Part shown: one piece after another, positions 36,001-39,000 of the stretch | How positions within the stretch are numbered: the first letter of the stretch is position 1 | How the letters are laid out: the number at the start of each line of letters is the position of its first letter | Origin: Candidatus Micrarchaeota archaeon | GTDB lineage: Archaea > Micrarchaeota > Micrarchaeia > Anstonellales > Bilamarchaeaceae | Reading direction: 5' to 3' | NCBI GenBank assembly: GCA_043827025.1 | Contig: JBDRPL010000025.1 | Location: forward strand, 1 to 58,810 | DNA: 58,810 nt | Program-made: the position numbers

Positions 36001-39000
36001 GGCATTATCCTTTTTAGATGTATTCCAGGGCGAATGTTCCCAGGTATGCGAGCAATATGTACCTGGCAATTCTTCCAAGGGCGCATGAGAACAAGAATCT
36101 TGGAAGGGAAATCCCTAGGCCGCCTGCAGCTATTCCTGCAATGTCGAATAAGGGATTAGGTATGAATGCCAATATAAAAATCGCAGGGATATCATTCTTC
36201 TTTATCATTTCAAGGTATTTTCTGTGTTTCTTGAGTTTTTCATCATGGATCATCTTCTCTGCGCCTGACCCTGCGATATATCCCGTAGTCTCTCCTAATG
36301 CTGAACCTATGCCAGCTACAATTCCAACTATATATGGATTCAGGACCCCTGCCATAGCAATGACTATGGCCCAGCCTGGTGCAGGTATGAATAAGGTTGC
36401 CGAAGACAGCATTGAAACTATAAATACGCCAGCATATCCGAATTGTTCGAATTCCTTGAGTTTGTCGCTGAAGGCAAGTATGATGACAATTAGGGCAACT
36501 GCAAATATTATTTGTAGCAATCCCTTGACTTTGTCATATGCCATGGTTTTAACTGGTGGGCGTTGATTTAAATTAGTTTCGTCTCTGAAATATTACTTCA
36601 ATTGGACAGAGCCTATTCTGTCTATTTGGTGAAAGTTTAAGGGCATGTGGCAGAAACTTCTTTCGGGTTGCCAAAGAAGTTTCATCAAGAAAGCTTGGTA
36701 ATTGCTTTAGGAAGTTTGATTAAACTTTATCCGAATAAATGTCTGATGAAAGTTTAAGGGCATGTGGCTCAATGGTAGAGCGCCCGCTTTGCATGCGGGA
36801 GGCTGGGGGTTCGAATCCCTCCTTGTCCAATGAACTTTTTCTTTCTCGCAGAAAGAAAAACTTCAATGAAAAAGAAAGACCTACTTGAAAAGAAAAAGTT
36901 TATTGTGCACCAAAAGAGAGAACTATTTTTATCTACAGTTCAATTCGTCCAGCCTGGATTTGCTTGTTATTCTCCAAGTGTTGAGCATCTTTCTTCTTTT
37001 CATTCTTAGCTCTTTTATACTAACACCGTACATTGTCATACGGACCACCCCACTTACTTTTTGTTAGTATTACGTTCTAGCTGAGGTATATAAGGAAGCC
37101 AGTGGCCTTTAGGTAATGCCTATTCGGAAATCTCAATTGCTTCATACACAAAGAATTCAGTATCTGGCTCTTTCCATCCATCTTTCGACATCCCTGCCTT
37201 TATACTGAGTTCAGACATGAATTCTGTTTTGTCTGGGATCTGTTCCCATACTGCTGGTAAGTATGTTGCGGTATGGAAACCATTTTTCATTATGACTCCA
37301 TGCTTATCAGGAATCAGTTTCTCAAAGAATTCCTGCCAGTTCTTCACCTTCATTTTCTTTGGAGGGGTAAGGACAGAAATAGTTATCTTCACCTTAGGTA
37401 GTTCTTCAGGCTTCAACTCATAGAATCTTGGGTCATTGAATGCTGCATAGACCGCATTATTTACAACATCAAGGCAAAGAGGCCTTCTTGCCTCAAGACT
37501 TCCTATGCAACCGCGAAGGTGTTCGCCAATATACAGTGTCACGAAGGTAGCGGCATCCTCCGTCATTCTCTTTGACGGGATTTCTTGAGGTTTCACATCA
37601 ATGACAGTTCCAGTCTTGAAGTAATCTTGGATTGCTGTTCTAGCAAGGCCTAAAAGAAACCTCTCTTCTTCTTTGGTAAATTCCATCATTTTATCTTGCA
37701 GGTTAGGTTTTAATTTATATATTCTAGAACCTGCGTCTATGTGGTTGAATGTGGTTTGTTCAACCGAAGCATTTATAATTATATTTAACCATAAATAGCT
37801 ACATGATCCGACTACCGGTTTTGACCAAAAAATCCAACAGAACATCTTTTTTACGTCCACTGCAATTATTGGTTGCAGGCTCTTGTCTTGTTGCATGCGC
37901 GCATTCCAAGAATCTTGAAAGGAATCCTCAGACGGATCATTGTGAACTTACTGGTTCCACTTTAACATTAACGATTCCTGGCAATGGCGTAAGGTCAATT
38001 GATTTAGATGTCCCTGATGGAGTTACATTCTCTGAACCTATTGCCATTTCCTGTCAGGACCATCGAACTATAATCGTAACTCCGGAAGGAGTAATCAGAA
38101 CTCTTGGACTTTTGGACGTTGCTACAGGAAGAGAAATGTTAGGTCTTTTTTCAGATGGGATTTTCAGACCTCAGAATGCCATCTTATTTTATACTTTAGG
38201 TACTGTCGGGAAGTTGTCTTCAGCTTCCATTGATGGCAATTGTGTGATATTTGAGAGTGTTGACGGGAAAAGCTGCCGCGTAAATGCTGATTCTCCATTC
38301 AAGCCTGCAATATGCAAGCAATAAATAGGTTCTTATCGAATGTATGTTAGGTGAAATCATATGAGTCCTGTTACATCAGAAATGCAAGTTACTTTGCCAA
38401 TTTTGGCTCAAGAACTTGATACAAAAGTTCTTCAAAAGAGATTTGGTGTTGCATACGATGCTGCAGTGAAAGCAGTAGTTGTTACAGTTGATGCCAAAGC
38501 CAAAGAATACAATCGGGAGATTCTAAGAGCAGTTAAGGCTAAGGATTATGTGGCAATTGGGAAACTCATAGATGGTTTGCCAAGTGATTTGGATCTGCAT
38601 GGATTTAAGCTTAATCGGTATGCCAATGCAGATAAGCCTGAAAAAGTAGATCGCTTTTTTGATGAAGATGCAAAGTTATATTCCCAATATGTTCGGGAAC
38701 CTGAAGTTCCTAATTATGAGGATTATATAAAAGCTACAATGAAACTTGCAGATTCAGAAGAGGTAAATCTTACTTTAAGTTTTGCGAATCTCAAGGCAAA
38801 ATCCAACCCCTCAATCTCTGCAACTCTTAAAGAAGGAAAAGGATCATTCGTCAGGGATGCAACTATGCTTGTAGATGGTGGGGTCAAAGGAAGGCGCGTT
38901 AACAGTAGCTTTGATGTTGCAGATGCGACTGTTGCCAGCCTGATGGCAAGGTCATTAGTTCAACAAATAGGTATTTCCGGCGCAAATGCTCCAAAAGAAG

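Follow-up and report, generated by a model that had tools for sequence, protein, structure and literature searches.

Why does an intact tRNA gene carry, a short distance upstream, a second copy of its own beginning? The question is raised by tRNA-Ala(TGC) of a tiny groundwater archaeon, Candidatus Micrarchaeota archaeon, on a contig of 58,810 nt, which is the window analysed here. An exact 22-bp direct repeat lies upstream of this gene (36630-36651) and overlaps it (36747-36768), with a spacer of 95 bp. The genome-wide survey's note had described the repeat as a duplication of the tRNA's own end, left by a DNA-level event aimed at tRNA gene ends. The match is indeed exact, but only half of it is tRNA (positions 1-11), the other 11 nt being leader. 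The features of the window that bear on the question are the following.

18282-18328, minus strand: tRNA-free module of the E2 type, not near any tRNA gene
23629-23672, minus strand: M1-family module within the anticodon-loop intron of tRNA-Arg(TCT)
36014-36544, minus strand: flanking gene for a VTT-domain membrane protein (Pfam PF09335), a synteny marker, syntenic in the related genome G001
36567-36574, plus strand: TATA-like box 5' of the first copy, conserved in the syntenic G001 locus
36630-36651, plus strand: upstream copy of the 22-bp repeat (leader part 36630-36640, tRNA 1-11 part 36641-36651)
36652-36693, plus strand: hairpin module M1, of a family known in tRNA introns, recognised by sequence matches
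36694-36709, plus strand: short, locus-specific connector after M1, from which the Ala-GGC unit diverges
36710-36757, minus strand: E2, another module of the M1 hairpin family, antisense, abutting tRNA +1
36739-36744, plus strand: weak antisense arm to tRNA 1-6 in the predicted fold, 13 nt 5' of the gene
36747-36768, plus strand: downstream copy of the 22-bp repeat
36758-36829, plus strand: tRNA-Ala(TGC), intact and intronless (ARAGORN; RF00005, 70.2 bits)
36830-36874, plus strand: hairpin immediately 3' of the discriminator
37120-37896, minus strand: flanking AMMECR1 family gene (Pfam PF01871), a synteny marker, syntenic in G001

The full 72-nt gene sits 3' of the insert, complete by both ARAGORN and RF00005, as the earlier description had it; no 3' terminal copy follows it. 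M1 is identical at 42/42 nt to the module of the Ala-GGC 5' unit, which upholds the reported near-identity, and shares 21 identical nt with the Arg-TCT intron; related copies in relatives occupy T-loop introns, anticodon introns and 16S rRNA. The last 11 nt of E2 constitute the leader half of the repeat, and E2 also abuts Ala-TGC and Val-TAC in G001 as well as Leu/Ser genes in genus g19. The Ala-TGC arm, with four Watson-Crick and two G-U pairs in the predicted fold, is weaker than those of other units and may be a chance match. Judging from the box at 36567-36574, which resembles the archaeal TATA consensus, the entire unit would lie inside the probable 5' leader.

Position 9 is G both in the upstream copy and in its gene, but A in Ala-TGC of G001 and G011. 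In G001, the syntenic Ala-TGC locus lacks an upstream copy, and its gene bears an anticodon intron that is absent in the present genome. The ancestral-type leader lies between both copies and not 5' of the first one; therefore, more than one event is required here, and the simple target duplication that had been proposed is not a clean fit to this locus. Both repeat junctions are found on error-free contigs of run X1, which may be the source of the assembly and is thus not independent; in the same run, the shared module M1 has about twice the depth of its flanks. Contigs of four runs, which drop rare variants, contained no joint and no deletion allele, and none from related strains covered the insert. 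An assembly artefact was ruled out by the X1 contigs and by recurrence across many genomes.

Defining a copy as an exact repeat of at least 10 bp of a tRNA end within 220 bp, we found 5' copies at 7 of 41 catalogued tRNA genes (7 of 42 with Leu-TAA on C9, added later, whose 5' copy is 7 nt by eye and hence under the threshold). On the 3' side, five of 41 genes have a copy when a match at the discriminator is required; the sixth case, Thr-GGT, has a copy ending at position 72. No copy turned up on either side in the swapped-side controls, and the expectation from random windows is 0.016 and 0.032 genes. The earlier tally of seven and six genes out of 42, with empty controls, is thereby reproduced within one 3' case. 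Its own caveat about terminator residues is also borne out, in that, without four to five trailer T residues, three of the five strict 3' repeats would fall short of 10 bp. The tRNA part of the copies is mostly 8-15 nt (7-15 nt overall; 18-32 nt in a few 3' copies of relatives), with lengths clustering at 11 and 13 for 5' copies and 11-15 for 3' copies, which end at the D-loop and T-loop. The junction at tRNA +1 is sharp (41/41 matches at +1 versus 20/41 at -1).

Inserts measure 31-130 bp and hold no ORF, and the spacers of 5' units span 31-95 nt, as had been given. The statement that these spacers hold the intron modules is borne out only in part: a stretch of at least 20 nt in common with any tRNA intron exists in only 3 of 13 (Ala-TGC, Ala-GGC and Arg-CCT); in two it measures 12-13 nt, and the other eight do no better than shuffled sequence. 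The Arg-CCT module does equal the Gly-CCC intron over 40 nt, as claimed. The junction of tRNA 1-11 with M1 occurs at three loci in the present genome and at no tRNA among 98 family genomes; the Ala/Arg junction pattern has two further matches, both in non-tRNA sequence. A relaxed test (7 nt, one mismatch allowed) retrieved 55/217 5' copies and 47/215 3' copies against 357/3834 in the control, but gives no support for the arm, because 295 of the 357 control matches also passed its antisense criterion. Linker motifs had no genome-wide specificity, and a scan for bacterial promoters and terminators, which does not cover archaeal signals, returned nothing.

What most spacers hold is a hairpin and an antisense arm. 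Parsing 36 units revealed a common plan in most of them, namely the copy, about 4 nt, the hairpin, about 2 nt, the antisense arm, a linker and the gene, the arm spanning the duplicated stretch (7 or 13 nt). The loop asymmetry lies on the sense strand in all 29 of the 5' units and on the antisense strand in six of seven 3' units, the seventh being symmetric and none reversed; in G097, one and the same module occurs in both orientations, sense at the 5' end of a Leu gene and antisense at the 3' end of a Gly gene. Unit stems have no G-U excess (4 G-U, 3 A-C and 19 other). This strand symmetry argues for a DNA-level process over an RNA-level one. In Leu units, the copy agrees with its own gene at position 7 in 29/29 and at position 12 in 27/29. 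In the Leu-CAG and Met units of the present genome, the copy fits the host, whereas the arm fits the start of Ser-GCT at 7/7 and that of the host at 6/7; Ser-type arms recur at Leu genes in L256 and L260. Tandem identical units are present in G083, G117 and G018, and stacked different units in G258. Split or permuted tRNAs do not describe the units, whose copies measure 7-15 nt with the intact gene adjoining. A foldback model, in which the linker would be a palindrome, was rejected as the linkers are not palindromic. Similar duplications with hairpins were also observed at one promoter region and one protein gene start, so that the supposed aim at tRNA gene ends holds as an enrichment and not as a confinement.

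In this archaeon and its relatives, hairpin cassettes devoid of genes have been gained and lost repeatedly at tRNA gene ends. At the syntenic tRNA-Leu(GAG) of genus g19, the unit is present in 11 of 24 congeners (filled) and missing from 13 (empty). The sister genomes G349 and G287 differ there by exactly a 75-bp insert duplicating tRNA 1-13. In the g19 tree, where L257 is less than half filled in the alignment, starred branches force at least three changes, and two filled/empty sister pairs are strongly supported; the gene of the pairs that differ by the insert lacks any intron. Three of the 11 filled g19 alleles or close relatives (L261, L262 and L242, by eye) are decayed copies or partial remnants. 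The survey's note had regretted the lack of an empty-site allele; such alleles exist across species, at g19 Leu-GAG and at the copy-free Ala-TGC of G001. Together with the strand symmetry, the filled and empty sister alleles support its view of a DNA-level event that duplicates the terminus. Across the phylum, 27 of 401 genomes have the Leu unit, in which a 7-bp stem resembles an acceptor and a second hairpin takes the place of the T-arm; this three-way-junction unit has similar flanks across families and orders.

How, then, do the cassettes reach tRNA ends? Our best explanation, for which we see about even chances, is that they move between them by microhomology template switching. The 7-15-nt terminus of a tRNA gene would serve as microhomology: a replicating or repairing strand would copy it, switch to a donor locus with a similar terminus, copy the donor cassette and switch back to the start of the terminus. 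The terminus would thus be used twice and be host-derived, while hairpin, antisense arm and linker would come from the donor. The opposite-strand version of the event would generate 3' units, and recombination or slippage between copies could yield tandem stacking or clean deletion. The gene would stay intact, and the insert, probably neutral, would presumably leave with the leader or trailer via RNase P or tRNase Z. Modules of the intron type, M1 among them, may have been picked up likewise, recently so at Ala-TGC, Ala-GGC and Arg-CCT. Template switching is favoured by the fixed geometry on the strand reading into the gene in both unit types; by the host-matched copies and by the donor-type arms at Leu-CAG and Met here and at Leu genes in L256 and L260; by the filled and empty sister alleles and the tandem and stacked units; by the M1 junction found at three loci here and nowhere at tRNAs in 98 family genomes; and by the duplications outside tRNA genes, along with the failure to find Cas1 or GIY-YIG genes. 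Template switching is reported to create and maintain hairpins in RNA genes (PMC8794818).

Several points run against it. The constant 4-by-2 loop and the sharp +1 junction look enzyme-defined, although the latter is equally forced by selection for an intact gene. The flanks of the Leu unit are kept across orders, longer than neutral debris should last, Ala-TGC needs more than one event, and the empty alleles may be precise losses and not ancestral states. No transfer intermediate appeared in the contigs, and Y1 transposases are commoner in Leu-unit genomes (11/24 versus 23/112 other genomes of the order, p 0.017, hand-tallied among kin that are not independent). This last association, like the fixed loop geometry and the strand symmetry, would suit an element that guides itself: a Y1 (HUH) transposase or other single-strand enzyme would recognise the hairpin, and the antisense arm would pair with the single-stranded tRNA end, choosing the target and setting the duplicated length. 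We consider this unlikely. In its favour, the duplicated stretch is spanned by the arm, which in some units is a better match to a donor tRNA than to its host, and the present genome has three Y1 transposases, on C6, C9 and C1; the flank of one IS200, on C9, has a 37-nt module in common with the Val-CAC intron. Another IS200 sits 3' of Arg-CCT but has palindromes of its own. IS200/IS605 insertion is not known to make a target duplication, which counts against such an element, as do the 13 of 24 unit-bearing genomes without detectable Y1 and the expectation that donor-type arms arise equally under template switching. IS200/IS605 and REP enzymes are described as using guide tetranucleotides at the hairpin foot (10.1101/279083), whereas inspection of the 36 parsed units by eye disclosed neither a constant guide tetranucleotide nor GTAG/GTGG there. 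Should this unlikely reading hold, Micrarchaeota would harbour a single-stranded DNA hairpin element of 40-100 nt, guided by its arm to tRNA ends on either strand and inserted by a host HUH enzyme that duplicates the paired stretch, and the same machinery would deliver modules that, on landing in a loop, turn into bulge-helix-bulge introns.

A selected role in the precursor RNA (end protection, folding aid, tRNA mimic or processing signal) appears distinctly less probable. The tRNA-like Leu unit in its 27 genomes and the concerted change of copy, arm and gene would agree with it. Further, the arm can capture the gene's 5' strand in predicted folding, the swapped form reaching 0.97-1.0 in Leu-TAG, Val-TAC and Arg-CCT at equilibrium, and an existing arm may favour a matching copy. 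But the Leu-GAG locus is empty in 13 of 24 congeners, alleles decay, 3' units show the loop asymmetry in mirror image at the RNA level, and the stems show no G-U excess. It is improbable that the units are what remains of an older gene with an intron, whose terminal exon and intron were stranded when an intron-free copy such as a cDNA replaced it. The copies do end at sites of introns in these archaea, the D-loop and T-loop, M1 belongs to the intron modules, a reverse transcriptase gene lies in two pieces on C11, and G001 has the Ala-TGC intron that is missing here; yet a spliced-RNA route does not give the antisense geometry of 3' units, the arm spans positions 13 to 1, far past a 4-bp splicing helix, the loop is 4-by-2 instead of a 3-nt bulge, eight of 13 spacers have nothing in common with introns, and sister pairs differ without an intron in the gene. 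Deletion-shrunk scars of tyrosine-integrase or casposase integration are very improbable. Integrative elements are reported to leave displaced tRNA ends, with a repeat criterion of >30 bp (PMC3293823), and three tyrosine recombinases are encoded here, one adjoining tRNA-Glu(CTC); that gene, however, has no nearby repeat, no integrase gene lies within or next to the inserts, which retain no coding remains at 31-130 bp, the repeats measure 7-15 nt, Cas1 (PF01867) had no match in this genome (92% complete), and the antisense arm stays unexplained. The search for GIY-YIG was likewise negative in G000, G001 and G018; in G097 and in G258, it returned a single long ORF. Scarcely credible, finally, is a true 5' exon in the upstream Ala-TGC copy, with 117 nt as an intron whose cutting by the epsilon2 endonuclease would follow bulge-helix-bulge pairing of positions 4-7. 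On paper, Ala-TGC, Ala-GGC and Val-TAC can form the helix, a cut there would give back the complete gene, and the genome encodes an epsilon2-type endonuclease, an enzyme said to accept relaxed motifs (PMC3239211). Nevertheless, the required fold lies 9-14 kcal/mol above the minimum (pair probability <=0.002), Leu, Ser, Cys, Met and Arg units are unable to form the helix, no splicing motif was found at unit junctions, where loops are mostly 4-by-2, and the downstream copy already yields a full tRNA that the insert does not interrupt.

The gain of archaeal tRNA introns is an old open question, and selection for splicing hides the raw insertion inside the tRNA. Leaders and trailers escape this filter and keep the footprint, with a duplication from the host, an arm from the donor, units on either strand, and alleles with and without the insert, which affords a rare direct view of hairpin pieces moving between tRNA genes. 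Transfer at the DNA level could be tested with defined 50-100-bp substrates. If an enzyme used the arm as a guide, it would constitute a very small programmable insertion system, and terminal units delivered by a self-guided element would be the unselected raw product of intron gain. The units also lead astray the annotation of tRNAs and integration sites in DPANN genomes.

In the literature searched, supplements excluded, we found no published account of such tRNA-end hairpin units, but several known systems resemble them in part. In archaeal integrative elements (SSV-type, pNOB8-type and that of tRNA-Thr-F in Caldiarchaeum subterraneum), a tRNA-end repeat likewise brackets the insert, the gene is rebuilt and both ends are used; as described in PMC3293823, these inserts are at least 1.8 kb with a recombinase and a repeat of >30 bp, in contrast to gene-free units of 31-130 bp that have 7-15-nt repeats plus an antisense arm and occur at many tRNA genes per genome. 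Casposons that target tRNA genes (PMC6614799) also produce a target site duplication overlapping the gene end, but the units have no cargo genes and no terminal inverted repeats in the predicted folds, and no Cas1 was found in the genome. REP/REPIN/BIME sequences with RAYT (Y1) are, according to PMC3116915 and 10.1101/279083, similarly small gene-free palindromes that spread within a genome, form tandem or nested clusters and are excised; the present units differ by residing largely at tRNA/rRNA genes, by their target-complementary arm and target-end duplication, and by a foot that is not of the GTAG type. Near-identical modules in different tRNA genes are reported for tRNA intron transposition in Thermoproteales (10.64898/2026.10.13.758758), and many non-canonical introns with an epsilon2 endonuclease for the multi-intron tRNAs of Ca. 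Micrarchaeum ARMAN-2 (PMC3239211), both as here, although the units lie outside the mature tRNA on both strands, with a duplicated terminus and no splicing motif. Template-switch hairpins likewise come with reverse-complement copies and with perfectly paired stems in RNA genes; the events described in PMC8794818 are local, whereas the units are shared cassettes of fixed loop geometry that move between loci.

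Hairpin cassettes, each accompanied by a duplicated tRNA terminus (the copy), lie directly before (5' units) or behind (3' units) tRNA genes of this archaeon, and these tRNA-end units are real, non-random and lineage-wide. The genome (G000; 1.33 Mb, 92% complete, the window being its contig C25) has a groundwater metagenome as its source run. Standard finders overlook about half of its tRNA genes; 41 were catalogued by hand, and a 42nd, added later, stands outside the main repeat count. Inserts push 35 of the 42 beyond 95 nt. Two heavily interrupted genes (C18 19944-20205 and C24 27158-27314) bear the provisional labels Ile-TAT? 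and C24x. The exact 22-bp repeat announced at tRNA-Ala(TGC) by the genome-wide survey's note is present around 95 bp, half of it being leader (11 nt, followed by tRNA positions 1-11), and the locus is laid out as follows:

28893-35735, minus strand: ORF of 2280 aa, upstream of the locus
36630-36651: upstream copy of the 22-bp repeat
36652-36693: M1, a hairpin module whose family also occurs in tRNA introns
36710-36757, minus strand: antisense module of the M1 family
36747-36768: second copy of the repeat
36758-36829, plus strand: tRNA-Ala(TGC) gene

Both repeat junctions are found on error-free contigs of sequencing run X1, which is possibly the source run. With regard to the whole catalogue, 5' repeats of at least 10 bp were found at 7/41 genes and 3' repeats of the same length, discriminator included, at 5/41; the survey's counts of 7 and 6 are recovered when Thr-GGT, where the repeat stops at position 72, is added as sixth 3' case. 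Swapped sides again gave 0 and 0, random windows lead one to expect 0.016 (5') and 0.032 (3') genes, and cross-gene comparisons yielded 6 and 6 matches out of 1640, nearly all where gene ends resemble each other. The warning that terminator T's inflate the 3' repeats is justified, as three of the five strict ones need trailer T residues. Of the 22 non-coding direct repeats (at least 12 bp, spaced by 35-220 bp), 12 lie near tRNA genes, versus 10% of the non-coding bases.

In most units, the copy of tRNA positions 1-7 or 1-13 is followed by some 4 unpaired nt, then by a perfect hairpin and, another 2 nt or so further on, by an arm complementary to the copy, after which come a second hairpin in some units, a linker of 6-25 nt and the gene. 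The spacers had been said to hold the intron modules, but only 3 of 13 share at least 20 nt with an intron. Parsing 217 tRNA genes (41 own and 176 from relatives, many Leu genes being pattern-chosen) with a score symmetric for both loop sides retained 36 distinct units. The longer loop side adjoins the copy on the sense strand in all 29 5' units, and on the antisense strand in six of seven 3' units, the last being symmetric and none reversed. The relative G097 has one module type both in sense ahead of a Leu gene and in antisense orientation following a Gly gene. It is chiefly this strand symmetry that argues for a process at the DNA level, as had been proposed. The non-Watson-Crick pairs (4 G-U, 3 A-C and 19 other, small numbers) give no sign of RNA-level selection.

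At Ala-TGC, the spacer opens with M1, a stretch of 42 nt that recurs unchanged in the Ala-GGC unit, and closes with the antisense module, which abuts tRNA position +1; the near-identity of the two Ala modules is thereby borne out, as is that of the Arg-CCT module with the Gly-CCC intron (equal over 40 nt). The syntenic locus of G001, the sole congener, has a TATA-like box and an antisense module type as in G000, together with different leader hairpins, an anticodon intron and a 3' unit, and harbours neither the upstream copy nor M1. Both G000 copies carry G9, versus A9 in the two relatives found, and the junction of tRNA 1-11 with M1 occurs three times in G000, while none of the tRNAs in 98 family genomes has it. 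On these grounds, the event is recent and lineage-specific. The target-duplication footprint put forward by the survey holds in part, the units resembling miniature insertions, but Ala-TGC is not a textbook case: an ancestral-type leader lies between its copies, so at least two steps are needed. M1-family modules also occur in the 16S rRNA gene of G000 (C24, minus strand, within 21850-23800; bulge-helix-bulge-like border, read by eye), in that of G002 (C3 29910-29947; the corresponding G000 site is empty) and, in G001 (C41 1757-1791), close to where an apparently protein-coding gene begins.

Among relatives, the pattern of the 5' unit at tRNA-Leu genes (Leu unit) retrieved 24 records from 185,579 species genomes, titled Micrarchaeota/Micrarchaeia/Anstonellaceae (20), 'ainarchaeum' (2) or 'archaeon' (2). 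Of 401 genomes of the phylum, 27 have the Leu 5'-copy pattern, and the own order (136 genomes) accounts for 24 of these; the reversed form of the pattern matched none of the 401. The copy equals its own gene at position 7 in 29/29 and at position 12 in 27/29 Leu units, the genomes being related and not independent. G018 has 5' copies at 5/31 genes and 3' copies at 8/31 (swapped, 0); at the 10-bp threshold, the 5' and 3' figures are 3 and 2 of 40 in G097 and 4 and 5 of 20 in G258, with no copies in G001 (0/9 genes) or G027 (0/8). Identical units stand in tandem in G083, G117 and G018. In G013 (C21 11200-12300), tRNA-Thr(TGT) is enclosed by a 5' copy of 31 nt and a 3' copy of 28 nt; these two copies form an acceptor stem of their own, in which one pair is compensated, and the spacers on the two sides of the gene are complementary. 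In the related genus g19, tRNA-Leu(GAG) follows the same gene in 24 of 40 genomes, where alleles classed by eye are filled in 11 cases (2 with a decayed copy) and without copy in 13. The sisters G349 and G287 (100/99) have their leader in common, and what separates them is a 75-bp insert in which tRNA 1-13, but none of the leader, is duplicated; in a second pair (100/97) G258 has two stacked units and G198 none. On the g19 tree, the starred branches cannot be explained by fewer than 3 changes, and 6 are required on the best tree, each a gain or a precise loss.

Template switching is the simplest route to such units, and requires no special enzyme. A switch at a 7-13-nt terminus common to donor and recipient would use the host terminus twice and carry the cassette along; quasi-palindrome correction via the arm could then keep copy and gene alike, and the insert could leave together with the leader, since an RNase P RNA is present (C15 6974-7234; short, its 58 bits not reaching the archaeal family's cut-off of 84). 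Template switching in RNA-gene hairpins is documented in PMC8794818. In G000, the arms at Leu-CAG and Met are better matched to the Ser-GCT start than to the host, whereas their copies match the host (clear in 2 of the 9 examined; in addition, a Leu-TAG arm matches Leu-CAA). This suggests that the arm comes from a donor and the copy from the host. Duplications with hairpin filler away from tRNAs fit the expectation for a general process. On C10 (24189-24375), the divergent promoter region preceding a class I aminoacyl-tRNA synthetase-like gene contains 143 bp of GC-rich hairpins between the two copies of a 22-bp repeat that includes a TATA-like box; on C32 (90824-90980), the start of a protein gene (about 27 codons) occurs a second time further upstream, separated from the gene by a hairpin, in analogy to the tRNA units.

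A matching copy may also be favoured in RNA folding once an arm exists: in equilibrium predictions, which ignore tertiary and co-transcriptional folding, the upstream copy often pairs with the 3' strand of the acceptor stem, the gene's 5' strand being taken up by the arm, and the Leu three-way junction is kept across orders, yet the Leu unit is missing in more than half of congeners. A splicing motif between the two Ala-TGC copies is possible on paper, at a predicted cost of ~10 kcal/mol (about 9-14). The splicing endonuclease itself, a protein of 392 aa encoded on C6, matches 4FZ2, a three-unit enzyme (E 1e-131). Its epsilon2 gene stands side by side with an IS200-type HUH transposase (Y1) gene and with tRNA-Arg(CCT) and the 5' unit of that tRNA (C6 9124-11822). 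That the cassettes are a self-guided element, linked to the gain of tRNA introns and inserted in a guided, enzyme-driven way, seems unlikely. The fixed loop geometry, an arm spanning exactly the duplicated stretch, the three Y1 transposases of G000 and the 37 nt that the flank of one shares with the Val-CAC intron speak for it, as does the hand-tallied presence of Y1 in 11/24 unit-bearing versus 23/112 other order genomes (p 0.017, kin not independent); however, 13 of the 24 lack Y1. Neither Cas1 nor GIY-YIG was found in G000, and its three tyrosine recombinases and split reverse transcriptase gene lie away from units. One recombinase gene (410 aa, C10 75229-76545) begins ~85 bp behind tRNA-Glu(CTC), which spans 415 nt and contains several inserts. 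The reverse transcriptase gene, in two frames (C11 16110-19550), follows a 199-aa ORF with no Pfam match, a layout we take to resemble a diversity-generating retroelement.

In PMC3293823, a 5' tRNA fragment lies 1.8 kb upstream with a recombinase between; the comparison also took in PMC3239211, PMC6614799, 10.1101/279083, PMC3116915 and PMC11782384. The terms 'direct repeat', 'hairpin', 'leader' and 'Micrarchaeota' are absent from the main text of 10.64898/2026.10.13.758758, and the literature searched (main texts, with few subscription papers) yielded no description of cassettes at tRNA ends that lack genes and combine a copy with an antisense arm. The units match neither integrase elements nor casposons nor introns, and they do not appear to be REPs; behaving like miniature insertions with target duplication, they are classed here as small mobile hairpin DNA of a new form.
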